Origin: a virus
Lineage: Duplodnaviria; Heunggongvirae; Uroviricota; Caudoviricetes
Length of the DNA stretch: 40,040 nucleotides
Reading direction: 5' to 3' (one strand)
Virus record (IMG/VR): IMGVR_UViG_2547132278_000009
Positions within the stretch are counted from its first letter, which is position 1. Each line of letters opens with the position of its first letter. A program made the position numbers and the translations under genes. The notes under the pieces were generated by a model. It saw nothing but the letters and a program-made list of their open reading frames with translations, was not told the DNA's origin and searched no databases. Shown here in pieces: positions 3,986 through 40,040 of this stretch.

Positions 3986-4067
3986 TGTTTCATCCTTGAA
4001 ATAAGTAGGCGCTAACATCCTGTCAGCGCCACAATGATAGTAAATTAGTACTTACTTATCCAGATAC

Positions 4068-7400: not shown

Positions 7401-9020
7401 GCCAACTACCCCCATGATCCCTGCTCGCATCAGTTTGAACGCAACCATCGCGGCCACGACCTTACCGAGATTAATTACCAGCTCTTGGTTCTTTGCTAAC
7501 CATTGAGCAAGCTGACGCAACCCATCGATTGCCGTTGTTAACCCCGAACCTAAAGAATTGGCAAACGAAATCCCTTCGGCGCTATTCATGATTGAAGCCA
7601 GTTCTTTCATCCCCTTCGATAGAGAATCCAGATATCCGGCCTGACCAACCCGATCAGCAAATAACGTGAATGACGTCTGAAGTTGCGCCAGCGCACCTGT
7701 GTAGGTTTGCATCATGTCTTTCGCTGCGTTCTCATTCTCCGCACGCAGACCAACAAACATCAGAGACAACGCCTGTTTTGCCTCAACCGTACCGCTGGCA
7801 ACGGCTTTAGTCAGTTCCCCCATAGTGATGCCTGCGGCGTCTGCCATTGCCTGCATCGCGTTAGGAACGGCTTCACCTAATTGCTGACGTAGCTCTTCCA
7901 TTGACACAACGCCCTTACCGGACATCTGCTGAACGGCCACAGCCGCACGTTTCAACAGCTCACTATCACCACCAAAACGAGCAACGGAGTCCACCAGCGC
8001 CTTCAGAGAACCATCGGTTGGATCTAAGCCAGCAGAACGAAACTTCACGAAGGAGTCTGTTAACGCCTGCATCGCGAACGGCGCATTTTGAGCCATGTCT
8101 ACGATGTACTTCATGTCATCGGCGGCAGCCTGGCCAGGGTTGGACTTCTCCTTATTCAACCCTCGAAGCATCACCCGCATACGTTCCATTTCGGCCGCAG
8201 CTTCAACAATAGGCTTCTGCCACCCAAACATGATGTCAGTAACCGTTCTGGCTGCATCTCCGATCTCGCCAAGCAGGAAAATGTTGCCACGAAGGCCAGA
8301 GAACATACCTCCTTCGTTACTTTTACCGCTATGGCCAGAAGCGCCGCTACGCCGCCCGCTACCACCATCGCCACTTCCAGATGTACGAACGCGTACCGGC
8401 TTGCTAATCAGTTGCTGACGTCCGATAACTTCGTCCATCTGCTCACGAACCTTTTTCAGTCCCTCGGCAGCCTGACTCGTTGTGACACCCCAATTACTGA
8501 GTCGCTTCGTCGTGGTATTAAGGCGCGTATTCATGCCACTCACGGACGCAGAGGCTTCTTTGACCTCCGTACCAAAGCGGCTTGCGCTTTTGCTTGCATA
8601 GGTCGCCCAATCAGAGAAATCATTTAGCTCTGATTGCACTTTACGTAATGACGCGGTGAGTTTATCTACTGAAGAAGCTGTCGTATCGACGCGCTCAATC
8701 AGGGCTTTAAGACCAGAATTGAGGCTGGTGATGTTGCCACGCATTTTACGCGTAGCATCTGAAGCAAGCTCAAAACCGGCAGCTACATCCTGTAGTTTAT
8801 CTGCCGTAGAATCGAGCTTGCTTTCCAGAACGCCAATGATACGGGCGACCGAACCCAAAGAGCGTTCAAAGGTTTGGATTTTTTGAGCAGGCTTTGTTAC
8901 CTGCTCACCAAATCGAGTAAGCAGTTTCCCCGCACGATCGATTGACGCTGTAAACTGTTTGTCTTCCAGCGACAGGATAAACTCTACGTTTTGTGACATT
9001 CCCTTGTCATCCTCTGCCAA
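4446..9020 (-). CDS. Tail tape measure protein
   Basis: 1524-aa mostly alpha-helical/coiled-coil ORF with Gly/Ser/Thr/Ala-rich segments, located between G/GT and M as in lambda H. Confidence 0.85.
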   Translation of the reverse strand: MAEDDKGMSQNVEFILSLEDKQFTASIDRAGKLLTRFGEQVTKPAQKIQTFERSLGSVARIIGVLESKLDSTADKLQDVAAGFELASDATRKMRGNITSLNSGLKALIERVDTTASSVDKLTASLRKVQSELNDFSDWATYASKSASRFGTEVKEASASVSGMNTRLNTTTKRLSNWGVTTSQAAEGLKKVREQMDEVIGRQQLISKPVRVRTSGSGDGGSGRRSGASGHSGKSNEGGMFSGLRGNIFLLGEIGDAARTVTDIMFGWQKPIVEAAAEMERMRVMLRGLNKEKSNPGQAAADDMKYIVDMAQNAPFAMQALTDSFVKFRSAGLDPTDGSLKALVDSVARFGGDSELLKRAAVAVQQMSGKGVVSMEELRQQLGEAVPNAMQAMADAAGITMGELTKAVASGTVEAKQALSLMFVGLRAENENAAKDMMQTYTGALAQLQTSFTLFADRVGQAGYLDSLSKGMKELASIMNSAEGISFANSLGSGLTTAIDGLRQLAQWLAKNQELVINLGKVVAAMVAFKLMRAGIMGVVGAGSQMVSTFATMATAIQTPFNLGATAVTRFNRAARMGLAPIPSLIFAIRGAITGLKGAFAGLTAFIAANPIGAAFTVATVAVAGLITYMTMLRSETSKVVDEIRKIPEAMTAAKRAQMADRAEKLEKQILADQRALKTGEGVNYVSNSAGVITHKESKADIEARLKKNQEEYQKITGTIALGDGAVAKRLAKEAAESQIEKIRAENQIFAATFVKARQEALDKIQKINDDGSLSDDEKNKLLAPLRETVNKSYLEPAQKLVDSLSSRKNATEKQIATLNDQLEKAKKDGNTEQIQKLQGSIRGYQEHLEAVAQELTQAEFERDNAAKTGKGVMSNQGTVLGLGTTDKAAKKALAQYMRNQMDSATYQRTLPDGTPMMDFEGKPIIGPKQLKTQLNLQKASSASSLEKMSDEERAAAIAALTKAREQDAAAAEKAAQRSANASQRAAKKEQAAQQKLAAGYQKALDKADQLMGQMGESSKATVSFDQSLRDTTKSLTDLANAVPNEFITQEMIDKAKKRLEDLKNATPEYREMFNRRNVEQMISTWAPEADSIISAGYTPSREEKVADFEDTYNRNLKALIELRDKASDPKVVALYTKKINQLIAAGNTALIKETGTATQKLALEYENLAEQIESTWTDLFSGLTDVLTDFVINGKMSFSSLSQSILKDITNMVVKSQITLPLMNMLGMGTTAAGSSQSGNLLTGVASAVANQGVRMGNTVNGDKSVGEATKETSSSVTGLGQTTQQTTSAIGTATNAIGSWVSGLFDSTEAKDAETKAVKDSIFSMQNLSSVTGALSAAFAMLGANASGSGNKWLSFGATVASGLVSAWAGGGFDSVTSSSAKTATSSVADGTKGIPAIPKFANGGIFGKDGVIPLRAYQKGGIANSPQLALFGEGDMNEAYVPLPDGRTIPVTLSTDGMSGGGNVLSPVSIEINVHSDGSTTESGDTESIWNNAAQRMKAIALETIAQEKRPGGSLNPNTQRN

Positions 9021-10482: not shown

Positions 10483-10556
10483 TGATGGAAAACTCCTTTT
10501 TCCGTTAATTCTACGCATTCATTGCGCTAATAGTAAGTATATACTTACCAATTGAG

Positions 10557-14106: not shown

Positions 14107-14135
14107 CATAGATAACTACTTATCTACTATACTGA

Positions 14136-17520: not shown

Positions 17521-17546
17521 TTGAATAACCTTAGATAATTACTTAC

Positions 17547-18803
17547 CTATCGAGAACCACCAAGAATAACACGGTTTTTGACTGGATACCTACGATGTAC
17601 TGGATAGCCCAATGCGTCTGCACTATGCTCAATGCCACCTGTCTTATCCATATCTCGTGTTCCAGGCTTGTAGATGACTTTTTCCAGTGAATCAATCAAA
17701 TGCTTGCACTTCGGATCGATATACAGCCGGATATCTCCAGATGCGGTCATCAGCATTCGGTTAACAGCATTAACACGATCCGCAATTGGCGGGTGCTTTT
17801 TCGAATAATCGACACGTAAGAATCCCTTCTCTTTGAATATGTCTACGTCAGACTCCCCACGAGCATGTTGGCGATAAGCACCTGCCGGATCTGGAAATAC
17901 CGTTACCTGTGATTTCCAGCGCCAGAAGCGTCTCTCAAGCTCATCACAAACTTCTGCCGTGTTAGAGGAAAAGAGCACCAATTCATCAATTGCCCATAGC
18001 TCACCATTTGGCTGAGGTTGCAAAATTACTGAAGACATCGGGTCAATGTTGAAGTCCTGCCCTACCCATATAGGCAACCGAGGGTTGAACTGAAGCGGTT
18101 TTACATGCACGTTACGATCGAACGGGTAGTAAACGCGCCCGGACATGTTCTCAAAGCTGGCCAGGTACTCCTGAGCGAACGATTTGGGGTCCATATCGTT
18201 CTTAGCAGCTTCAATTTCCGCCGTAGGTACAAACGGAGAATCGGCAGTTACAAACTGCCAGCTCTTCCACTGTCCCTTTCTTTGCAGCTCTACGTTCTGG
18301 CCTATAGTCCACAGTTTGTGAAATTCCGAGAAGCCTTTTGGCGTACCAATGATCAGTGCACCGCCGCGTGTCGATGAAAGAGTAGGTCGTAACACCTTGT
18401 ACCAGGTGTCAGCCTTCATATCCTGAAATTCATCAAGCACTACAAAATGCAACGCTACGCCGCGCAGAGTGTCAGGCTTATCAGCACCTTTGAGGGCGAT
18501 CTCCGAACCGTTCTTCAACACGATTGTCATCGTGGTGTCGTTCTTTTTCCTAACCCACTTACGAGGCAGAACTTCCTGTAGATCGTCCCACAAAATCTGG
18601 CGAGCCATCTGGTAAGTAGGAGCGACATACCAGACCCTTTGCTTTTTTTCCTTTGCCGCCGCACGAATAATAGTGGAGATCGACAACCGGGATTTTCCCC
18701 AGCGTCGACCAGCACAAACAACTTTAAATCGATGCGGAGACTGGAAGACTTTCATCTGTCCAGAATGCAGTTGCACAAGACTGAGCGAGGACGGGATTGC
18801 CAT
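17547..18803 (-). CDS. Terminase large subunit
   Basis: 418 aa; Walker A CAGRRWGKS, Walker B VVLDEFQD, C-terminal nuclease-like region; start overlaps stop of the small subunit gene. Confidence 0.85.
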   Translation of the reverse strand: MAIPSSLSLVQLHSGQMKVFQSPHRFKVVCAGRRWGKSRLSISTIIRAAAKEKKQRVWYVAPTYQMARQILWDDLQEVLPRKWVRKKNDTTMTIVLKNGSEIALKGADKPDTLRGVALHFVVLDEFQDMKADTWYKVLRPTLSSTRGGALIIGTPKGFSEFHKLWTIGQNVELQRKGQWKSWQFVTADSPFVPTAEIEAAKNDMDPKSFAQEYLASFENMSGRVYYPFDRNVHVKPLQFNPRLPIWVGQDFNIDPMSSVILQPQPNGELWAIDELVLFSSNTAEVCDELERRFWRWKSQVTVFPDPAGAYRQHARGESDVDIFKEKGFLRVDYSKKHPPIADRVNAVNRMLMTASGDIRLYIDPKCKHLIDSLEKVIYKPGTRDMDKTGGIEHSADALGYPVHRRYPVKNRVILGGSR

Positions 18804-22822: not shown

Positions 22823-22840
22823 TAAGTAATCACTTACTTA
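22823..22840. promoter_or_regulatory. Inverted repeat TAAGTAA-TCAC-TTACTTA in the divergent promoter region between the ParB operon and the helicase
   Basis: Read directly; followed by TATTATAAT (-10-like); member of a recurring TAAGTA/TACTTA palindrome family. Confidence 0.4.
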
Positions 22841-22886
22841 TTATAATAGCCAAATAACATACAAAAGGCACTAAGGAAAGAGGTTT

Positions 22887-25218: not shown

Positions 25219-25747
25219 TGACATGACAACCAAAGATATTACCTACGGTATCCAAGCTGAACTCTGGCCGCGAGATTACACTAACGTTGAAAAACTACTG
25301 ATGTTCTGGCGCAGAGAACAAATTCCTGTAAGGGTCACTCTCGAAGATGGCCAGGCGTTTTGCATGTACGTTTATGGCCTCATGCCATCTCGTAACAAAG
25401 TTGACCTTTGCCCAGCCCCTTTTGACAAAGAAAATCGTATAAGGCTCCCACTTGAACGCATTAGTACAATTGAATCAGGTGTGGTTGACAGTATCGCTCA
25501 CGATTTCAAAGGTCGACTAACAGTTCACCCTGATTATGTCGATAATCGGCCATCACGCCGCGATTTTTTTGCAATTTGCAACCAAGCCTACAAAGCAAAC
25601 AAATCTATAAGGGTGTACATGGCGGATGGCCGTGAAATTGAGGGGGTGTCAGCAGGCGCAGATGCTTGTCAGGTTACACTACGTGTCGAGAACGGTAGAA
25701 AAATAGTTGTTTTGTTCGATTGGGTTGAACGAATTTTGCCTTTTTGA
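25214..25747 (+). CDS. Hypothetical protein with apparent internal duplication
   Basis: ORF 25145..25747; likely start MTTKDITYG overlapping the lipoprotein stop; two similar segments (IPVRVTLEDGQAFCMYVYG / IRVYMADGREIEGVSAG). Confidence 0.45.
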   Translation, partial: CDDMTTKDITYGIQAELWPRDYTNVEKLLMFWRREQIPVRVTLEDGQAFCMYVYGLMPSRNKVDLCPAPFDKENRIRLPLERISTIESGVVDSIAHDFKGRLTVHPDYVDNRPSRRDFFAICNQAYKANKSIRVYMADGREIEGVSAGADACQVTLRVENGRKIVVLFDWVERILPF

Positions 25748-27986: not shown

Positions 27987-28099
27987 GCCGTTTCCCGAAA
28001 AAATCCTGGCCGTTTCCCGTCGGCTCATGAATACGTTCCTCGCCGTTTCTGAAAATTTCCCTGCGGCAGCTGGTGTCTATAGAGAAAGGGCCGTTTCTG
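27987..28099. repeat. Iteron-like direct repeat array A (GCCGTTTCC/GCCGTTTCTG, 4 copies)
   Basis: GCCGTTTCCC at 27987 and 28009 (22 bp apart), GCCGTTTCTG at 28042 and 28090. Confidence 0.6.
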
Positions 28100-28112
28100 G
28101 CCCTCTTCTCAG

Positions 28113-28595
28113 TTACACGCCATCAAGGATGTGGATGCGGTTGCTTGCGTATACATTCAGCATAAAGTTAGCGCAAAACAGTTTCCATGTATCAACGCCA
28201 GCGGCATACGTAATGTTTTTGCATTTTATTGCATTGTTGGCGATCCGCATCCCCTGTGATACTGCTTCATCGTCGGAAAATTTGAACGACGATTGAGTTT
28301 TAATCCAGACAGAAATCTGCGTAGCGAACTCAATCAGCTTGGACTGGCAGAATCGCCCGGAGCGCACCGGAAAGACGAACGTTCCGAATCCAGAATTTAC
28401 CACATACGCTTTCTCAAATACCCGCGAGTAACGACGATTGCCAATGATGTCGCGTGCAATAATGCATTTTTCTTGTGCTGACAGTTCTACCGTCTCATTG
28501 TCGCGCCATGCACCAAGTACTCGTTTTTCAATGTCAGAGAACGTTACAGCGATATTGCCATGTGCGGGTGCGTTTACAGTAGCGATAAAATTCAT
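28113..28595 (-). CDS. Hypothetical protein (160 aa)
   Basis: ORF with GGAAT RBS-like and the palindromic operator 20-40 bp upstream; no motif recognised. Confidence 0.5.
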   Translation of the reverse strand: MNFIATVNAPAHGNIAVTFSDIEKRVLGAWRDNETVELSAQEKCIIARDIIGNRRYSRVFEKAYVVNSGFGTFVFPVRSGRFCQSKLIEFATQISVWIKTQSSFKFSDDEAVSQGMRIANNAIKCKNITYAAGVDTWKLFCANFMLNVYASNRIHILDGV

Positions 28596-28612
28596 GATTA
28601 ATTCCTTATCGT

Positions 28613-28632
28613 AAATAACAAATTGTTTTCTT
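28613..28632 (-). promoter_or_regulatory. Palindromic operator copy (AACAAATTGTT core) upstream of the 160-aa gene
   Basis: AATAACAAATTGTTTTCTTG read directly; flanking TTAATTAACACCAACAAG block is shared with the site at 31143. Confidence 0.45.
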
Positions 28633-28797
28633 GTTGGTGTTAATTATCGTTGTACGAATAAGGCGTCAAAGTGGAAAGTTGCGGTAGCCGGACGGGAACA
28701 GGTGGGTTTGTCGGTTGCCTGGAGGTAAGAGGTTGGTGTTATTAGCCTGAGGGAAACAGGATGGTCATTTAAGACCACCAATGCTGGTGGCCTTAAT

Positions 28798-28943
28798 AAT
28801 TATCGCACGATTACGCTAAGGATCTTTTCCTCAACTGATTTGTTGTTGCGACTAAACTGCCTTGCGTATCTGATGACAGAAGAGGCGTTTTGCTTTCTGA
28901 CCATCTCGGCTCTTTCCTTCAGGCGTTTCTTGAAATCGCCCAT
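28798..28943 (-). CDS. Possible small basic protein (48 aa), below the ORF-track cutoff
   Basis: Hand translation MGDFKKRLKERAEMVRKQNASSVIRYARQFSRNNKSVEEKILSVIVR; ATG 2 nt after the upstream stop with GGTGG upstream. Confidence 0.3.
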
Positions 28944-28945
28944 AT

Positions 28946-29320
28946 TTACCACCAGGCGCAGAAGGTCAGTCTGTTATTGTGAAAGTCGTGGTTCTTAATC
29001 AGGTCTTCCACAAGCTCTTTCAACTGCCCCACATCATGCCAGTAACCTTCATCGTACTCCTGACTGCCGAAGAAAAAACCTTCCCGGGTAGGCAAGTACT
29101 CTTCGCAATTACTTTCGTTTATGTGCATCAAATGAGCCTTCAGAAAACAAATGTCATTCATCGTTAATTCTAAAAGCTCACAATTTTCGACTTCACCTAC
29201 GTTGCGCTCCATCCACCCAACGAGCGCATTGAACTTACGGAAGTAAGCAACCTGCTTTCTGGATGCCTCGTTATTCAGATCGTTTTTAGGCTGTGTCTCG
29301 ATATAGATATCAAGTCCCAT
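28946..29320 (-). CDS. Hypothetical acidic protein (about 124 aa)
   Basis: ORF 28946..29362; probable start MGLDIYIETQ; operator copy and hairpin upstream. Confidence 0.5.
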   Translation of the reverse strand: MGLDIYIETQPKNDLNNEASRKQVAYFRKFNALVGWMERNVGEVENCELLELTMNDICFLKAHLMHINESNCEEYLPTREGFFFGSQEYDEGYWHDVGQLKELVEDLIKNHDFHNNRLTFCAWW

Positions 29321-29375
29321 GATGGTTTCCTTATTAACTTGCTTCAGTGAAATCATTTTCACAAATCAGATAAGG

Positions 29376-29395
29376 CAGAAAACAAATTGTTATCG
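29376..29395 (-). promoter_or_regulatory. Palindromic operator copy upstream of the acidic 124-aa gene
   Basis: CAGAAAACAAATTGTTATCG; adjacent hairpin GGCGCG-N6-GCGCC likely terminator of the upstream gene. Confidence 0.45.
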
Positions 29396-29437
29396 GGCTT
29401 AATAAAATGGCGCGGTTTACGCGCCATTTAAAGAGGA

Positions 29438-29833
29438 TTAAGCGAATACGCTTTCAGGGATTAAGGTGTCGGCAGGAATGCCAGAGGTAATGCGCAGGCC
29501 GTACTGACCAATCCAGGTAGTGTTGGTATTCAGGCTGGAGGCGAATACGGTGTTAACCATATTCATCATGGTTTCAAACACCTCTTCATCAACCTGGCGG
29601 AAGTAGTTCTCGATTTTCAGCAGCAGCGGGTCAGTTGCATCGAGAATGGACTGGTATTGAGTCGCGTACTCGCCGCCGGAGGCATCACCTTTACGCACGA
29701 TCGTACTGGCCTGGACTTCGGCACCAGTTTCGGTGTTGTACGTAACAACGGTGATTTTTGCCACATTCTTACCTTCGGCGGTTTCAGAGGCATAGTAAAC
29801 ATCAACTGTCAGTTTTTCGCGTTTAACGGTCAT
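29438..29833 (-). CDS. Hypothetical protein (131 aa)
   Basis: ORF with GGAGAGTG RBS-like sequence upstream; no motif recognised. Confidence 0.5.
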   Translation of the reverse strand: MTVKREKLTVDVYYASETAEGKNVAKITVVTYNTETGAEVQASTIVRKGDASGGEYATQYQSILDATDPLLLKIENYFRQVDEEVFETMMNMVNTVFASSLNTNTTWIGQYGLRITSGIPADTLIPESVFA

Positions 29834-29959
29834 TTCACTCTCCGTAGTGTATTGGTTATTTTTCTATTCTATGATCGTAAGTATGTACTTACAATACAAA
29901 AAAGCCCCGTAAGGATGGCGGGGCTGTCGTACTGTCGACTAATTGCCACTTGCACATTA

Positions 29960-30271
29960 TCAGGCTATTGCCATCACTGATGCTCTCTGAATCTCTTGCT
30001 GGGCCACGCGGTTAACTTCCATCAAAGCCAGTTCGAGCTGATGTTCCGGCCACATTCTTTGAAATGCCACCCAGCCTTTTCCACGCTGGCGACGAACATT
30101 CATTACATAACGAGTAAAGGTGTTTTTATCGAAAGACACCGCTGTTTCACGGAACAGACGAATAGAGGTTCCATTGGCAACGATGTCCAGCAAAGTTAAT
30201 TGAGCAACCAGCGCAGGCTTCTCTTTTCTCTTCTGGTCTTTGTCCAGACCAAGAACCAATGATTTTTTCAT
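29960..30271 (-). CDS. Hypothetical basic protein (103 aa), possible DNA-binding protein
   Basis: ORF 29960..30301; start MKKSLVLG at 30271 with GGAG RBS; K/R-rich. Confidence 0.5.
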   Translation of the reverse strand: MKKSLVLGLDKDQKRKEKPALVAQLTLLDIVANGTSIRLFRETAVSFDKNTFTRYVMNVRRQRGKGWVAFQRMWPEHQLELALMEVNRVAQQEIQRASVMAIA

Positions 30272-30280
30272 TACAACTCC

Positions 30281-30299
30281 GTAAACAACTTGTTTTCTC
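30281..30299 (-). promoter_or_regulatory. Palindromic operator copy (GAAAACAA-G-TTGTTTAC) in the 5' leader of the basic-protein gene
   Basis: Read directly; lies within a ~60-bp module duplicated at 30765-30840. Confidence 0.5.
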
Positions 30300-30424
30300 A
30301 ATGGCGTAAATAATACCAGTAAGAAAACGGCTACAAAGCATATTGATCAGGCGCATGAGCGATATGCAGGTTCTTCCCTGCGGCTATAGAGAAATTAAGC
30401 CAGCAATGCTGGCTTTGGTTGGGG

Positions 30425-30754
30425 TTACTCGAATACTTCAAGAAACTCCTGAACGTCCCAATGCTGGACAAGGTGAAGATAGACCTTAGAAATAACGTCA
30501 TTCTCGCTATCGCATGTGAAGTAGAACTTCTGGCTGCGGTTGTATGTGTCCACACAAAATTCGCTCATATCCATAAAGTCAGCATCATCACCCAGGTCGC
30601 AAATCATCAAAGCAGGAGCATCATCACGAGTCATCAGCTCAAGCACCCAGCGCGAATTGATCAGCGTGGAAGACCAACCTTCTAACTCATAAAACTGGTC
30701 AAACTCTTTTTGAGTCATTTTCTTGATTTGGTTGATGTCGATATTTGCAAACAT
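30425..30754 (-). CDS. Hypothetical acidic protein (about 109 aa)
   Basis: ORF 30425..30820; start MFANIDINQ at 30754 with AAGGAT RBS; net acidic, D/E-rich. Confidence 0.5.
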   Translation of the reverse strand: MFANIDINQIKKMTQKEFDQFYELEGWSSTLINSRWVLELMTRDDAPALMICDLGDDADFMDMSEFCVDTYNRSQKFYFTCDSENDVISKVYLHLVQHWDVQEFLEVFE

Positions 30755-30764
30755 AACGCAATCC

Positions 30765-30783
30765 TTAAACATGTTGTTTTCTG
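30765..30783 (-). promoter_or_regulatory. Palindromic operator copy (GAAAACAA-C-ATGTTTAA) upstream of the acidic 109-aa gene
   Basis: Read directly; part of duplicated promoter module. Confidence 0.5.
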
Positions 30784-30892
30784 AATTGCGTAAACAATAC
30801 CAGTAAGAAAACGGCCACAAAGTATATCGTTACGGTGCTGCGCTGCCCGGAGGTTAATAGCGACAAAAGCCACCGTGCTGGTGGCCTCACTC

Positions 30893-31111
30893 TTAATCTT
30901 CGTCGCCCGGGAACTCGCTGTGTACCGCGTCCACCAGCTCCCGCTTTTCATCTTCACTCAGCAGGTGCCAGATATCCTTCCCTTTGGGCGATTCCCCTTC
31001 TGCCGGGACGAACGACCACAACTTGCGGTACAACTCCGGCCCCACTGCATCCAGACACTCAGCCAGGGATTCCACGCCCCACACCTCAACCGTCACAGGC
31101 ATCTTAATCAT
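30893..31111 (-). CDS. Hypothetical small acidic protein (72 aa)
   Basis: ORF with GAGGATGAAGAG RBS-like leader; acidic C-terminus EFPGDED. Confidence 0.45.
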   Translation of the reverse strand: MIKMPVTVEVWGVESLAECLDAVGPELYRKLWSFVPAEGESPKGKDIWHLLSEDEKRELVDAVHSEFPGDED

Positions 31112-31142
31112 CTCTTCATCCTCACTTCGTTTATATAACGTC

Positions 31143-31159
31143 TAAACATGTTGTTTACT
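31143..31159 (-). promoter_or_regulatory. Palindromic operator copy upstream of the 72-aa gene
   Basis: TAAACATGTTGTTTACT with the same flanking TTAATAACACCAACAAG block as the site at 28613. Confidence 0.45.
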
Positions 31160-31491
31160 TGTTGGTGTTATTAACGCAATAAGACAAAGGCGAAAAAGGA
31201 TTTTATTCCGGTGAATGTGGTTTTGGCAGTGAGTTTTCAGGTTCAGTACCGAGTACACTTTTTACATTATTCTGATTTAGTGGCCGAAAGTGGCTGGTGG
31301 CAGAGTAATCCTCTCCCCAAAAACCTACTGAAATCGATTGTGCCCCGTTGGCTGTCTGGCACAATTACGCTGTAGCTGGGCATTCAGAGGGAATCCAGCG
31401 GTAAGCAAGCCCGCCTACGTGAGCGCCTCTCTTCTTCCCGCACATTACAGGTGGGTAGCCGCAACTCTCCCTCTCGCTATACCGGTACGCC

Positions 31492-31622
31492 GCCGTTCCT
31501 GAACCGGCATCGAGCCTTTTCCCGAAATCCACACAGGCAACTCGACCGTTTCCCTGAAAATCCCCAGCCGTTCCCCGAAGGCAACCCAGCCGTTTCTGTA
31601 GCGGGATGCAACCTTTTCCCTG
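31492..31622. repeat. Iteron-like direct repeat array B (6 copies of G/A-CCGTTTCC-type units at about 22-bp spacing)
   Basis: Units begin at about 31492, 31514, 31545, 31567, 31589, 31610; several followed by GAAA. Confidence 0.65.
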
Positions 31623-31699
31623 TATGGACCGAAGACTGACCGTAGGGGTGTTACGGGGGGATAAAATCAGGAGTTGAATAAATACGAAAAAGGAGGCGA

Positions 31700-32600
31700 C
31701 ACCCCTCCTTCCCTCCCCACTTATACATACCTGGCTTCTTCGCTATACATGTTGTGTTTTATCTGTCTCAACCTCTCTATAGGCGTTAATGCTCACTCCT
31801 TCCAGAATGTTCTATACGGCGACTATTTCTGTTGGTGAATTGGGTGTGTTGTTTTCTCTGTCGGTGTATGTGGTTTCGTTCGTTTTGCGGTGGTTCTTCT
31901 ATGGGGTGTTCTCGTCGTTTTGGTGATTGTTCTTCTCCGTGTATGGAGTAATGGCAGGTGGGCGATTGCTTTCGTTATTGTGTTTGAGTTGTTTGTCTGG
32001 AGTGTGTGAAAGGCTTTTGTAGTTATTCGTGTATTGGGTAATGGCGTTTCCCGTGATTGTTATGTTTCGTGTCTTTTGGGATTGAGAGAAACCTTGCGGT
32101 TATAGGCTTCGTTGGGTTTTCAGTGATTCTGGTGTTTCTTCGCTGTTTGGGGAATGGCGTGTCGTGGGTATTGCGCGTATGAATGTTTTCGGATTGCCTG
32201 TGAAAGTTAGGTTGGCTGTCCGGTAGCCTGGGGAGAAGAGGTGGGTCTTTTCGGTAGCCTGCCATAAAGAGGTTGGTTGTTTTTGGGAATGGCATTTGTG
32301 TTATTTAGTTGTTTTGTTATGCCTGAAAATAAGTTGTTTATATGGTTGTGTAACGCAACGGGAGCGATTTTGAGCGTGTGTTTTTGTTGGTAGTGTGTTG
32401 GGTCGTCTGTGGTGAAAATTGGACGCTGTGGCGCTGTCTGCTGCGTAGAATTACGGGTATAAGAAGTGATGTGTGAAAACGTCAATTTTTTAGACCAAAT
32501 CGGGTGAAAGCGTTGATGTTTCGTTGATCTGTTATTCAGTTGTTTTCTTGATTGTATAAACAACTATAACTTATTGATATTTAAGGATGTGATTGCGGGT
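31700..32600. other. About 0.9 kb ORF-free tract with extreme G+T richness on the plus strand
   Basis: Long runs of G/T-only words; recurring GG(G/T)AATGGC units near 31951, 32037, 32143, 32287; only low-complexity ORFs. Confidence 0.6.
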
Positions 32601-32682
32601 ATGGAAAGGGAGTAGTGGCGATCAACGGATTCTTATAGAAAAGAATCAAATTGTGACCGCCATTATCAATGAGTTGCAACCG

Positions 32683-33252
32683 TTAGTTGTTCAGATAAAC
32701 ATTTGGAACACGGACGTAGAAGTTCCTGTCGCCGGTAAGTTCCAGAGTAATGTTAATGTCATTACCATTGTCTAGTGTAGCCGTTGCTCTATAGAACTTA
32801 TCCGTCACCTTGTCCTCTATTGTCACCTTCATACATTTTGGTGCAGTCGAACCGTTATTCTCTTTCAGAATAGTTGTCACGAGAGGGCAGGCTGCTTCTT
32901 CAAGAGCAACCTCGTCCTTGTGTGGGATGCCGATGAAGATAATCCAAGCCAGCGACGCAACGATTATGATAAATGGCACTCTGCTGCCTTTTGTAATAGT
33001 CGCGCGCTTCCAGAGATAGACAGGCAGGAGGAATACCCCCCATAGAATTGAAGGTGGTTCACAGCCAGACTCCGATAGAGCCATTCTGTCAGCTACTAAC
33101 AAACCGATGGTAGTTACACCCCCAATTATAATAGCGTAATTGGTATACTCTTCCGGCGATACTCCAAAGAAGAAAGGCATGAACGCTAGAATCCACGCAT
33201 AAATGTTATTCAGAGGTTTTGTTTGTTGGTTCTGGGTTTCCATCACATCCAT
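32683..33252 (-). CDS. Membrane protein (about 3-4 predicted transmembrane helices plus C-terminal soluble domain)
   Basis: 189 aa; hydrophobic segments IYAWILAFMPFFFG, AIIIGGVTTIGLLV, ILWGVFLLPVYLW, FIIIVASLAWIIFIGI. Confidence 0.55.
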   Translation of the reverse strand: MDVMETQNQQTKPLNNIYAWILAFMPFFFGVSPEEYTNYAIIIGGVTTIGLLVADRMALSESGCEPPSILWGVFLLPVYLWKRATITKGSRVPFIIIVASLAWIIFIGIPHKDEVALEEAACPLVTTILKENNGSTAPKCMKVTIEDKVTDKFYRATATLDNGNDINITLELTGDRNFYVRVPNVYLNN

Positions 33253-33404: not shown

Positions 33405-33590
33405 TTAGATGAGATGGTCTAATTCATCATCTATCATTGCTTTAACACTTGAGTCATTAACCCCGTATTGATTTATGAACCGTTTCAGCTCCGGTGAAAA
33501 CTGAAGGTAGATATCGTGAGCGTTTTTCACTGTAGGTTCAACGCCACGCATTTCAAGCGCCTTTAGTAGATATGAGTCTTCTTTAAGCAT
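33405..33590 (-). CDS. Hypothetical small protein (61 aa)
   Basis: ORF downstream of the 102-aa gene, likely co-transcribed. Confidence 0.4.
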   Translation of the reverse strand: MLKEDSYLLKALEMRGVEPTVKNAHDIYLQFSPELKRFINQYGVNDSSVKAMIDDELDHLI

Positions 33591-33626
33591 AAATTCTCCG
33601 TTGTCTAGTATGAAGCGATTGCCGGA

Positions 33627-33935
33627 TTACCATTGCCAGCACTCTAGCCCTTCAACGACCGGTGCACCACAATCAAAATGTACAGAGTCAAAGCCTACAT
33701 CAAGTACTTTCTGAATGTTAGCAATCGCGCCTTCGGATATACCATATCGACGCAAGTCCTCTTTCCAGACATCATCCTGTAACCCGGCGTGGACAATACA
33801 ACCGCCGTCAATTTGTGAAACCCAATCCAGCTCATTGCTTGCGATCATGAATCGGCGAGCATCTTCCTCTGATGTATGAGATGAACTGATCAATGCCACC
33901 TGGTAGGCTTGGGTAATGTTCAACATTTCAACCAC
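33627..33935 (-). CDS. Hypothetical acidic protein (102 aa)
   Basis: ORF preceded by two operator copies; acidic composition. Confidence 0.5.
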   Translation of the reverse strand: MVEMLNITQAYQVALISSSHTSEEDARRFMIASNELDWVSQIDGGCIVHAGLQDDVWKEDLRRYGISEGAIANIQKVLDVGFDSVHFDCGAPVVEGLECWQW

Positions 33936-33937
33936 TC

Positions 33938-34007
33938 CAAAACAATTTGTTTTCTTATGTGGCTTATTATCTCAATCAACAAAAGGTAGAAAACAAATTG
34001 TTTTAGG
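33938..34007 (-). promoter_or_regulatory. Two perfect or near-perfect copies of the 17-bp palindromic operator
   Basis: CAAAACAATTTGTTTTC (33938-33954) and GAAAACAAATTGTTTTA (33991-34007), just downstream of the metG terminator. Confidence 0.5.
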
Positions 34008-34087: not shown

Positions 34088-36121
34088 TTACTTAACCTGA
34101 TGGCCTGGTTTAGCACCGGCATCCGGGCTTAACAGGAAGATATCTTTCCCGCCGGGGCCAGCAGCCATCACCATGCCTTCAGAGATACCGAAGCGCATTT
34201 TACGCGGAGCCAGGTTAGCCACCATAATGGTGTGACGACCAATCAGTGCCTGTGGATCTGGATAAGCGGAACGGATGCCTGAGAAGACATTACGCTTTTC
34301 ACCACCGAGATCCAGCGTCAGGCGCAGCAGTTTGTCAGAACCTTCGACAAACTCCGCGTTTTCAATCAGCGCCACACGCAGGTCAACTTTGGCGAAGTCG
34401 TCAAAGGTGATGGTTTCCTGAATCGGGTCGTCAGCCAGTGGGCCAGTTACCGGTGCAGCTGTGGCTTTCACTTCTTCTTTGGATGCTTCCACCAGTGCTT
34501 CCACCTGTTTCATATCGATACGGTTATACAGTGCCTTGAACGGATTCACTTTATGGCCCAGCAGCGGTTGCTGGATACCATCCCAGGTCAGTTCTGTATT
34601 CAGGAATGCTTCTGCACGTTCAGTCAGTTTCGGCAGTACCGGTTTCAGGTACGTCATCAGCACGCGGAACAGGTTAATGCCCATAGAGCAAATCGCCTGC
34701 AGATCGGCATCGCGTCCTTCCTGCTTCGCCACCACCCACGGAGCCTGTTCATCGACATAGCGGTTAGCCAGATCAGCCAGCGCCATGATTTCACGAATCG
34801 CTTTACCAAATTCGCGGCTTTCCCATGCTTCACCAATCACTTCAGCGGCATCAGTAAAGGTTTTGTACAGTTGCGGGTCAGCCAGTTCGCCTGCCAGCAC
34901 ACCGTCAAAACGCTTATTGATAAAGCCCGCGTTACGGGACGCCAGATTCACCACTTTGTTCACGATATCGGCATTCACGCGCTGAACGAAATCCTCCAGG
35001 TTGAGATCGATATCATCAATGCGCGAAGAGAGTTTCGCAGTGTAGTAGTAACGCAGGCTGTCAGCGTCAAAATGATTCAGCCAGGTGCTGGCTTTAATAA
35101 AGGTGCCGCGAGACTTGGACATCTTCGCACCGTTCACCGTCACATAGCCATGAACAAACAGGTTGGTCGGCTTGCGGAAGTTGCTGCCTTCCAGCATGGC
35201 AGGCCAGAACAGGCTGTGGAAGTAAACGATATCTTTACCGATGAAGTGGTACAGCTCGGCGGTGGAGTCTTTCTTCCAGTATTCGTCGAAGCTGGTAGTG
35301 TCGCCGCGTTTGTCGCACAGATTCTTGAAGGAACCCATGTAGCCAATCGGTGCGTCCAGCCAGACGTAGAAATATTTGCCCGGTGCGTTCGGAATTTCAA
35401 AACCGAAGTACGGCGCATCGCGGGAGATATCCCACTGTTGCAGGCCAGATTCAAACCACTCCTGCATTTTGTTTGCCACCTGCTCCTGCAACGCACCGCT
35501 GCGGGTCCATGCCTGCAACATTTCGCTGAAAGAGGGCAGATCAAAGAAGAAGTGTTCGGAATCACGCATTACCGGCGTAGCACCAGAAACTACCGATTTC
35601 GGCTCGATCAGTTCAGTCGGGCTGTAAGTCGCGCCGCAGACTTCACAGTTATCGCCGTATTGATCTGGCGCTTTACATTTAGGACAGGTGCCTTTTACAA
35701 AACGGTCCGGCAGGAACATGCCTTTTTCCGGGTCGTACAACTGAGAGATAGTGCGGTTTTTAATAAAACCGTTCTCTTTCAGGCGAGTATAGATAAGCTC
35801 AGACAACTGACGGTTCTCTTCGCTGTGCGTCGAGTGATAGTTGTCATAGCTGATGTTAAAGCCTGCGAAATCAGTCTGATGTTCCTGACTCATTTCGCCA
35901 ATCATCTGCTCCGGTGTGATACCAAGCTGCTGTGCTTTCAGCATGATCGGCGTACCGTGGGCATCGTCGGCACAGATGAAATTAACCTCGTGGCCGCGCA
36001 TTCGCTGGTAACGAACCCAGACATCAGCCTGGATGTGCTCCAGCATATGGCCGAGGTGGATTGAGCCGTTAGCGTACGGCAGCGCGCACGTCACCAGAAT
36101 TTTCTTCGCGACTTGGGTCAT
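34088..36121 (-). CDS. metG: Methionyl-tRNA synthetase
   Basis: Near-identity to E. coli MetG as I recall it (start [36 protein letters not shown] motif present); ORF-track N-terminal extension discarded. Confidence 0.97.
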
Positions 36122-36278: not shown

Positions 36279-37379
36279 ATGAGCGAGTCCAAATCGCCGG
36301 ATGCCCTGAGAGCAATGGTAGCCGGTACGCTGGCTAATTTTCAGCACCCAACCCTGAAACACAACCTGACTACGCTTAAAGCGTTACACCATGTTGCGTT
36401 GATGGATGACACACTGCATGTCGAACTAATCATGCCTTTCGTGTGGAATAAGCCTTTTGAAGACCTGAAAGAGCAATGTAGTGGTGATCTGCTCCGTATC
36501 ACTGGCGCAAAGGCTATTGACTGGAAGCTGTCGTACAACATTGCCACGCTTAAGCGTGTCAAAAACCAACCAGGCATTAATGGCGTTAAGAACATTATCG
36601 CCGTCAGCTCAGGCAAGGGCGGCGTGGGTAAATCCTCCACGGCGGTAAACCTGGCACTGGCGTTGGCTGCTGAAGGTGCGAAAGTTGGTATTTTGGATGC
36701 CGATATCTATGGTCCATCAATTCCAACCATGCTGGGCGCGGAAAACCAACGTCCAACCTCACCTGACGGTACTCACATGGCACCTATCATGTCTCATGGC
36801 CTGGCAACCAACTCTATTGGTTATCTGGTCACCGACGACAATGCAATGGTGTGGCGTGGACCGATGGCCAGCAAGGCGCTGATGCAGATGTTGCAGGAAA
36901 CTCTATGGCCTGATCTGGACTATCTTGTTCTCGATATGCCGCCGGGCACTGGTGATATTCAGTTGACGCTGGCGCAGAACATTCCTGTAACTGGTGCTGT
37001 TGTGGTAACTACGCCGCAAGACATCGCGCTGATCGATGCGAAGAAAGGCATTGTGATGTTCGAAAAAGTCGAAGTGCCGGTACTGGGTATCGTCGAAAAC
37101 ATGAGTGTGCATATTTGCAGTAACTGCGGTCATCACGAGCCAATTTTCGGCACCGGTGGCGCAGAGAAACTGGCCGAGAAATACAACACGCAGTTGTTAG
37201 GCCAAATGCCACTTCATATCTCACTTCGTGAAGATCTGGATAACGGAACACCAACCGTTATTAGTCGTCCAGATAGCGAATTTACGGCTATTTATCGTGA
37301 CCTCGCAGATCGCGTTGCTGCCCAAATGTATTGGCAAGGTGAAGTAATACCTGGCGAAATCGCATTCCGCGCAGTGTGA
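36279..37379 (+). CDS. mrp: Mrp/ApbC iron-sulfur cluster carrier ATPase
   Basis: Near-identity to E. coli Mrp as I recall it (P-loop SGKGGVGKSS, CSNCGHHE motif); divergent from metG. Confidence 0.95.
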   Translation: MSESKSPDALRAMVAGTLANFQHPTLKHNLTTLKALHHVALMDDTLHVELIMPFVWNKPFEDLKEQCSGDLLRITGAKAIDWKLSYNIATLKRVKNQPGINGVKNIIAVSSGKGGVGKSSTAVNLALALAAEGAKVGILDADIYGPSIPTMLGAENQRPTSPDGTHMAPIMSHGLATNSIGYLVTDDNAMVWRGPMASKALMQMLQETLWPDLDYLVLDMPPGTGDIQLTLAQNIPVTGAVVVTTPQDIALIDAKKGIVMFEKVEVPVLGIVENMSVHICSNCGHHEPIFGTGGAEKLAEKYNTQLLGQMPLHISLREDLDNGTPTVISRPDSEFTAIYRDLADRVAAQMYWQGEVIPGEIAFRAV

Positions 37380-39894: not shown

Positions 39895-40040
39895 ATGGAT
39901 AAACCTACAGACTGGCGCTCCGGAACCCGCCGGATATTTTCTAATGAATTTAAACTTCATATGGTTGAACTGGCTTCGAAACCAAATGCCAATGTTGCAC
40001 AACTGGCCCGGGAACATGGCGTTGATAACAACCTGATTTT
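39895..40040 (+). CDS. IS3-family transposase OrfA-like HTH protein, N-terminal part (partial, continues off-window)
   Basis: MDKPTDWRSGTRRIFSNEFKLHMVELASKPNANVAQLAREHGVDNNLIF fits the IS3-family OrfA pattern (R-x-FS-x-EFK ... VAQLARE.GV..N.L). Confidence 0.65.
   Translation, partial: MDKPTDWRSGTRRIFSNEFKLHMVELASKPNANVAQLAREHGVDNNLI

Follow-up and report, generated by a model that had tools for sequence, protein, structure and literature searches.

Positions 28113 to 31111 of the 40,040-nucleotide stretch of viral DNA analysed here (IMG/VR record IMGVR_UViG_2547132278_000009, henceforth the window) hold seven small minus-strand open reading frames (ORFs) in six transcription units, which are named below after the length of their products in amino acids (aa): g72, g109, g103, g131, g124, g47 and g160. 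On balance, we lean towards reading them as an array of six separately transcribed units of an SSU5-type phage-plasmid that are silent in lysogens and whose products are directed early at the host, with g124 as the best anti-defence candidate. The silence in lysogens comes directly from published expression data (PMC9928086), whereas we infer repression through palindromic sites and early expression from the position of these sites and from the lysogen data, and every protein function named below is likewise a proposal. The 3.3-kb region is 100% identical to the E. coli plasmid pTW10722_119 (NZ_CP035843.1, 119,787 bp) and 95-98% identical to the Escherichia phages PhiR41_1, CMS-2020a and Cyrano, all four of which are SSU5-type phage-plasmids, and elsewhere the 40-kb window encodes terminase, portal, capsid and tail genes, two ParB-like genes, a helicase, metG and apbC. 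Six or seven of the 7 array ORFs have been annotated by the Prokaryotic Genome Annotation Pipeline (PGAP) or by the phage depositors, always as hypothetical, and a full-text literature search with the six RefSeq protein accessions of the array returned no paper.

Transcription units and dispersed palindromes

Because g124 (28946-29320) and g47 (28800-28943; 47 aa, basic) are separated by only 2 nucleotides (nt) and share one leader and one terminator, the array comprises six units and not seven. A GC-rich hairpin (-14.7 to -20.8 kcal/mol) lies directly 3' of the stop codon in every unit and is followed by a T-run in most. Read from the sequence, the hairpin behind g103 (29898-29924, GCCCCG-(9 nt)-CGGGGC plus TTTTTT) is a strong terminator, and that behind g72 (30863-30886, GCCACC-AGCAC-GGTGGC plus TTTTGT), recognised by sequence reading and with RNAfold, is kept in SSU5 and in the Klebsiella phage pJN2-26. 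Terminator-like hairpins also follow g109 (30397-30415) and g131 (29405-29429), the hairpin behind g47 (28770-28795) has a tail that is not T-rich and would be a weak terminator, and the one behind g160 (28082-28110) marks the end of the array, the next genes converging from the plus strand. A preliminary description of this stretch had noted a row of small minus-strand ORFs, which lie where it placed them, and had assigned an operator-containing leader and often a terminator to each gene, an assignment that stands for the six units but not for g47. Start-codon calls vary among records, with g72 beginning at ATT (31108) in PGAP. For g124, the start at ATG 29320 is backed by the family alignment; a start at GTG 29362, used in some records (136-138 aa), was rejected, because this codon falls within the predicted -10 element and because 201 of the 217 members of the family begin with MGLD.

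The leaders share a dispersed 15-bp palindrome, WAAACAANTTGTTTW (motif 1, WAAACAA-N-TTGTTTW), with 11 matches in the window at up to 2 mismatches versus 1.06 expected, and with 19 sites in the whole 120-kb plasmid at up to 1 mismatch versus 0.28 expected. All 19 of these sites are on the gene strand and just upstream of a start codon, and in the array one site each precedes the start codons of g72, g109, g103, g124 and g160 at a distance of 10-58 nt, the g131 unit being without one. The sites have a common upstream context (tAATTAaACAcCAAnAAG), and the genes behind them include TerB-like, DUF4942, AAA ATPase, DnaB-like helicase, CobT-like and nrdB genes, with two sites each before the terminase operon and before the gene after metG (51 bp apart in the latter case). 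The operators that the preliminary description had seen in the leaders thus correspond to palindromes well above chance expectation, which we treat as predicted operators. A reading of motif 1 as an RNA hairpin was discarded, since this would give an A-U-rich stem closed by a loop of 1 nt.

Most copies of the palindrome start 11-14 nt past the predicted -10 element, with another 10-35 nt from their end to the ATG. In the leader of g72 (30893-31111) the palindrome is TAAACATGTTGTTTA at 31143-31157. The leader of g109 (30425-30754) spans 30762-30838, with an extended -10 element TGGTATTGT (30794-30802) upstream of the site (30766-30780), and that of g103 (29960-30271) spans 30278-30354, with TTGTAG (30331-30336), the extended -10 element TGGTATTAT (30310-30318) and the site at 30282-30296. 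For g160 (28113-28595), the leader (28615-28669) holds TTGACG (28664-28669), GATAAT (28643-28648) and the site at 28615-28629. In both the g103 and the g160 leader, the -10 hexamer (TATTAT with an upstream TG, and GATAAT, respectively) ends 13 nt before the palindrome. The g124 leader (29355-29393) is laid out differently: here the palindrome (29379-29393) covers the -35 region of an extended -10 promoter and is separated by 15 nt from the -10 element TGTGAAAAT (29355-29363), an arrangement that recurs at positions 8629 and 19519 of the plasmid record.

Motif 1 is kept before the equivalent small genes of SSU5 (9 sites in 14 kb) and of pJN2-26 (6 sites), even where the cargo differs, and the g103 leader has hardly changed between E. 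coli, SSU5 and Klebsiella. Conversely, among the loci compared, motif 1 was not found at any non-SSU5 locus that carries homologous cargo. On the basis that it is kept across the SSU5 group and absent from unrelated carriers of the same genes, we conclude that motif 1 is a lineage-specific regulatory signal.

The g131 unit (29438-29833) is instead preceded by a near-consensus sigma-70 promoter, TTGTAA-17-TAGAAT (29866-29894), whose spacer contains a perfect 16-bp palindrome, GTAAGTACATACTTAC (29877-29892), that SSU5 and pJN2-26 likewise have upstream of their g131 homologs. A LexA box was considered at this promoter and dismissed, as no CTGT-N8-ACAG could be read there. This second palindrome (motif 2, core GGTAAGTACTTACC) is dispersed through the element as well, at about 25 loci versus about 1 expected. 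Written as RTAAGTA-NN-TACTTAY, with the extended form ATAGGTAAGTACTTACCTAT, it occurs in short intergenic spacers and gives 36 overlapping matches versus 0.9 expected. Motif-2 sites in the window are at 29877-29892, 22826-22841, 17535-17550, 14108-14123, 10533-10548 and 4044-4059, with some 20 further sites elsewhere in NZ_CP035843.1, and they precede structural, replication and accessory genes, one of them in the 26 nt that separate the large terminase gene from the portal gene. Motif 2 could be a DNA operator or an RNA hairpin just 5' of ribosome-binding sites. The best copy of its core lies 31 nt upstream of a putative prophage repressor gene outside the window; the candidate regulator, the helix-turn-helix protein EXA02_RS27195/CYRAN_45, is encoded outside the window, and its upstream region has motif 2 and lacks motif 1.

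Expression in lysogens and gene content of relatives

RNA sequencing (RNA-seq) data are available for every gene of Cyrano, a phage-plasmid 98-99% identical to the present one, in E. coli LF82 (PMC9928086). By coordinate mapping, CYRAN_105, 106, 107, 108, 109 and 111 correspond to g109, g103, g131, g124, g47 and g160, respectively, so that the data cover all array ORFs other than g72, which Cyrano lacks. In overnight cultures in lysogeny broth, normalised reads were 12.8 for g109, 12.2 for g103, 17.0 for g131, 5.7 for g124, 57.9 for g47 and 25.5 for g160, compared to a floor of 5.0, 7.1 for the small terminase subunit and 95.8 for the putative repressor (PMC9928086). The only array ORF above the 5x cut-off used by the authors to define morons was g47 (PMC9928086). 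In macrophage samples, log2 values rose from 4.4/2.3 to 7.5-7.8 for g109 and from 5.1/4.0 to 7.4-7.7 for g160; g109, g160 and g131 were up by 2-4 log2 units, with the small terminase subunit at 3-5.6, near the floor (PMC9928086). These data are consistent with repression of the genes in lysogeny and their easy release from it, and they do not prove the timing of expression. A separate observation is that g47 (57.9) exceeds g124 (5.7), the ORF directly upstream of it, pointing to a promoter within the unit, to an antisense or small RNA, or to transcripts that differ in stability.

Morons, that is lysogenic-conversion genes expressed for the benefit of the host and including superinfection-exclusion or toxin genes, had been offered by the preliminary description as an alternative. 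Their classic anatomy, with a promoter and a terminator for each unit, is found here, g131 has its near-consensus sigma-70 promoter, and g47 is six-fold above background in lysogens. Yet five of the six ORFs present in Cyrano (g109, g103, g131, g124 and g160) are at or near background in lysogens and below the authors' cut-off, which argues for repressed genes and not for morons, and since they are silent in the lysogen a toxin or superinfection-exclusion role fits poorly. Moreover, their promoter palindromes are shared with lytic genes, and inspection of the sequences by eye, made with no prediction tool, revealed no membrane-spanning segments. We consequently regard the moron explanation as very improbable.

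A different concern is that motif 1 might be an activator site or part of a middle or late phage promoter, in which case the genes would be delayed and not immediate-early. Two copies of motif 1 before the terminase operon would suit such a role, as would the -35/-10 spacing of only 15 nt at g103 and g160, which is suboptimal, and the fact that the putative repressor gene carries motif 2 and not motif 1 upstream. The same holds for the palindrome over the -35 region of g124 and of two other promoters, because activators, too, could bind at a site centred near -38. On the other hand, most palindromes cover the predicted start point or follow it closely, as repressor sites do, and the genes behind them are silent in lysogens; we therefore judge an activator site to be unlikely, though by no means negligible.

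Gene content around the shared leaders is mosaic. In tblastn searches of 72,556 plasmids (PLSDB), g103 had matches in 746 plasmids of Klebsiella, Escherichia, Enterobacter, Salmonella, Citrobacter and Cronobacter (61-100% identity), g160 in 804, including plasmids of Yersinia (82% identity in Klebsiella, 70% in SSU5), and g131 in 930, including N15/phiKO2-like elements. Judged by this distribution, g103, g131 and g160 class as conserved backbone genes of the SSU5 group and not as variable cargo, whereas g109, g124-g47 and in part g72 class as exchangeable cassettes. Matches to g124 were found in 344 plasmids and matches to g109 in 229, of which 227 are from Escherichia or Shigella; g72 matched 1045 plasmids, 470 of them conjugative IncFIB/IncHI1B plasmids of Klebsiella (about 50% identity) on which the homologs sit in a long one-directional run of small genes. 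In the group itself, g72 is present in SSU5 (90%) and pJN2-26 (77%), g109 and g124-g47 are missing from both, and the slot between g131 and g160 is occupied there by a 93-aa gene. The identity of g131 between the E. coli and Klebsiella elements is 36%, compared to 64-82% for its neighbours, suggesting that it diverges rapidly. No paralogs were detected among the array proteins by all-against-all BLASTP.

The leaders of g109 and g103 are 83% identical over 77 nt, so that a duplicated leader stands on either side of g109. The alignment shows a single spacer between g72 and g103 in SSU5 and pJN2-26; here it is split around g109, with its promoter/operator part doubled. The duplicated leader and the single spacer of the relatives together indicate that g109 was gained as a cassette at the regulatory module.

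Each unit consists of a predicted host-type sigma-70 promoter (partly of the extended -10 type), a palindromic site that would bind a protein, one or two short ORFs and a hairpin terminator. The palindrome closely follows the predicted start point in g72, g109, g103 and g160 and covers the -35 region in g124. In the mechanism that we propose, regulators encoded by the element and acting on the palindromes would keep the genes off in the plasmid-prophage state. Upon entry into a repressor-free cell, or upon induction, host RNA polymerase would make many short monocistronic transcripts at once, and their products would act early on host proteins. Cassettes would be gained by recombination within the repeated promoter/operator module.

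Protein charge, homology searches and the g124 family

The preliminary description had called the products mostly acidic and had viewed the array as a candidate anti-defence island. Four of the seven proteins are indeed acidic: g72 (isoelectric point, pI, 4.42; net charge -10), g109 (pI 4.19, the lowest of the array; -14), g131 (pI 4.48; -7) and g124 (pI 4.75; -11). The other three, g103 (pI 10.5), g47 (pI 11.0) and g160 (pI 9.2), are basic. The acidic proteins carry -0.09 to -0.14 charges per residue, and among the small annotated proteins of the element g72 and g109 rank third and fourth in negative charge per residue.

Scans of all 7 proteins against Pfam, NCBIfam and PADLOC gave nothing above threshold, the only PADLOC result being a sub-threshold Csm6 match for g131 (E 0.03), and no protein of the array matched an ArdA, ArdB or ArdC model. 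The matches to PHROG (6757 for g72, 7645 for g109, 5125 for g103, 2473 for g131, 7971 for g124 and 1641 for g160) are all to families of unknown function. Sequence searches of the PDB with g124, g109, g160, g103 and g72, and with g124 and g131 profiles, returned nothing credible, and the multicystatin and prefoldin matches that did appear were set aside as compositional. For g109, only 9 near-identical relatives were found among 5.8 billion clusters, too few for a useful alignment. DNA-mimic folds, which the preliminary description had in view, are represented by no more than a weak likeness of the g124 model to DMP12. This model is confident (predicted local distance difference test score, pLDDT, 94), but its likeness to YfbM is weak, as is that to the DNA mimic DMP12, which unrelated proteins outrank, and against BFVD it matched uncharacterised jumbo-phage proteins only. 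The g131 model is moderate (pLDDT 74) and had no informative fold match.

The case for an anti-defence role is centred on g124 and its family. Sequence searches recovered 78 relatives of g124, down to 28% identity, in which MGLD at residue 1, YFRKxN and LPTxEGFFFGSxEYD are invariant or nearly so. A g124 profile matched 6031 clusters at E<=1e-3 (counted at 50% identity), 4336 of them at E<=1e-10, among 1.84 billion cluster representatives, and among the 150 best matches listed all but one align from residue 1 of a protein of 115-250 aa. The family extends to Firmicutes, Actinobacteria, Bacteroidetes and archaeal genome bins, and it is common to phages, phage-plasmids, conjugative plasmids and integrative elements. 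Its acidity is general (pI<5 in 88% of 217 members, median net charge -12), and no Pfam match was obtained for g124, for 50 aligned members or for 10 further members scanned.

The neighbourhoods of the family include anti-restriction genes. On a contig with a PilI gene, a g124 homolog is found two genes upstream of ArdA. In a conjugative element, 12 nt separate another homolog from the Antirestrict (ArdB/KlcA) gene downstream of it, which is followed in turn by MPTase-PolyVal. Similarly, the commonest Pfam combination in 148 neighbours of 37 further homologs was ArdcN plus MPTase-PolyVal, corresponding to ArdC, at four loci. Other homologs are located within strings of small genes of unknown function. 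The acidity of the family and these Ard neighbourhoods are circumstantial evidence that makes an anti-restriction or anti-defence role of g124 plausible. Such a role has a weaker basis for g72, g109 and g131; g103 and g160, as basic backbone proteins, are unlikely to have it and more likely to be regulatory or DNA-handling factors. The island proposed by the preliminary description is thus real as an architecture and has circumstantial evidence in its favour for g124 only; no family match supports it, three of the seven products are basic, and at least three of the genes belong to the backbone.

Ordinary early or accessory phage functions, such as small regulators of transcription or replication or modulators of host metabolism, with acidity incidental, are a possible but clearly less probable account of the array. 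Consistent with them, g103, g131 and g160 are core-like, being spread across 746-930 plasmids and six or more genera, three products (g103, g47 and g160) are basic, and motif 1 also precedes genes for replication, nucleotide metabolism and packaging. In addition, homologs of g124 in large phages reside beside genes for DNA ligase, dUTPase and ribonucleotide reductase. Such functions do not readily explain why genes of the g124 family adjoin three different anti-restriction families in conjugative elements, why g109 and g124-g47 are patchy cassettes or why g131 diverges far faster than its neighbours.

Beyond what was said above of activators, several points weigh against our own reading of the array as silent units with early, host-directed products and g124 as the anti-defence candidate. 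First, neither homology nor experiment ties any array protein to a defence system. Second, the excess of acidic proteins is suggestive and not exceptional: a pI<5 is found in 30% of the 60 proteins of <=170 aa annotated in the element, and 4 of the 6 annotated array genes against this background give a hypergeometric P of 0.06. Third, both the regulator that would bind motif 1 and the transcription start sites are predictions, and the best motif-2 copy before the repressor gene implies that the repressor may act via motif 2 and not via motif 1. Fourth, the RNA-seq data come from the relative Cyrano and not from pTW10722_119, and their strand specificity is uncertain. Finally, regarding g124 itself, the four ArdC neighbours probably derive from related elements and are not independent, the homologs in large phages reside in nucleotide-metabolism/ligase blocks and not in anti-defence islands, and the conserved motifs are more suggestive of a specific site for binding or catalysis than of a generic DNA mimic.

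A bolder version of our reading, in which the g124 family is an unrecognised, widespread anti-defence inhibitor that SSU5-type elements have wired into an undescribed genome-wide code of two palindromes, is one that we hold only tentatively and consider rather doubtful.

Comparable systems, surroundings and relevance

In their logic, the closest analogues of the array are the operators of phage P1 C1 and the PeSL ("promoter-early stem-loop") cassettes of T4-type phages, and we claim membership in neither. P1 C1 acts on many dispersed operators, and the P1 operator is an asymmetric 17-mer. As in P1, a plasmid-prophage here carries a short predicted operator before many separate units, including a DnaB-like helicase gene, in 19 copies. 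Unlike in P1, to which SSU5-type elements are unrelated, the site is palindromic, 15 bp long and unlike the P1 operator in sequence, a second dispersed palindrome exists alongside it, and its operator role is predicted only. PeSLs are mobile regulatory cassettes in hyperplastic regions, and the array resembles them in that small unknown ORFs are bracketed by a repeated stem-loop and promoter module, that the cargo varies among relatives, and that the module is doubled around an inserted gene, here g109. It differs in belonging to a temperate phage-plasmid and not to a virulent myovirus, in having a palindromic regulator site in the module and in having hairpins that are not all alike; recombination of the PeSL type at this module would rest on a single duplication.

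The DNA mimics Ocr, ArdA and T7 Gp5.9 have a charge density of roughly -0.17 to -0.25 per residue. The acidic array proteins are distinguished from these mimics, and from Neisseria DMP12, by a lower charge density, no sequence match and a weak fold match. The anti-defence islands in the leading regions of conjugative plasmids (Samuel and Burstein 2024, PMC11541004) are likewise strings of small, often acidic genes that are expressed early, as we would expect of the array, and homologs of g124 occur inside such leading-type regions beside ArdA, Antirestrict and ArdC genes. Control in the array would involve double-stranded-DNA operators, unlike the single-strand promoters of the leading regions.

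Small acidic genes continue upstream of the array, at 33405-33926 (minus strand), where one promoter with two motif-1 sites (33939-33953 and 33990-34004, 51 bp apart) precedes the genes for a 99-aa protein (pI 4.35, net charge -10) with a DUF5983 match (E 8e-11) and for a 61-aa protein (pI 4.9) with a sub-threshold match to the T7 Gp5.9 RecBCD inhibitor (E 0.006). Between these genes and the array, 1.5 kb (31140-32680) are without an annotated gene; small ORFs are annotated in the equivalent region of relatives. The stretch is rich in short repeats and, on the minus strand, in C and A (GC skew of +0.29 at 32001-33000), and a terminator-like hairpin (31687-31713) and one motif-1-like site (32326-32340) lie within it. 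Direct GGGAAACGGC-like repeats in two clusters (2 and 3 copies, 22-31 bp apart) flank the array at 27996-28027 and 31523-31585. Tandem 30-nt repeats, which read roughly ACCnACCTsTT...CAGGCTACCG on the minus strand, are located upstream of the g160 promoter (28678-28765) and again 3.5 kb off (32217-32277). Scans of the window with Rfam and for tRNAs indicated no RNA gene.

Farther away, the phage-plasmid carries metG (34088-36121, minus strand), which encodes a full-length methionyl-tRNA synthetase, and a gene for an ApbC/Mrp-like iron-sulfur carrier (36279-37379, plus strand). A 174-aa protein encoded at 25223-25747 (plus strand) gives a full-length match to Pfam Flag1_repress (E 1.5e-84), that is to FljA, the phase-1 flagellin repressor; FljA is an mRNA-binding translational repressor. 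Insertion-sequence (IS) genes occupy both ends of the window (IS100 istA and an IS66-family transposase, 1-297 and 39895-40040), and several IS insertions in the pTW10722_119 copy account for its size of 119.8 kb instead of the usual 108-112 kb.

Clinical E. coli, Klebsiella, Enterobacter and Salmonella commonly carry SSU5-type phage-plasmids, some of which spread resistance genes; 750-1000 PLSDB plasmids carry genes of the array. The regulation and the early functions of these elements are essentially uncharacterised, and the present analysis adds a map of transcription units, two dispersed palindromes and a shortlist of candidates for host takeover or anti-defence. The most useful lead among them is g124: its family is very large, gave no Pfam match in the 60 members scanned and is found repeatedly near ArdA, ArdB or ArdC, so that one positive assay would annotate thousands of genes on mobile elements.

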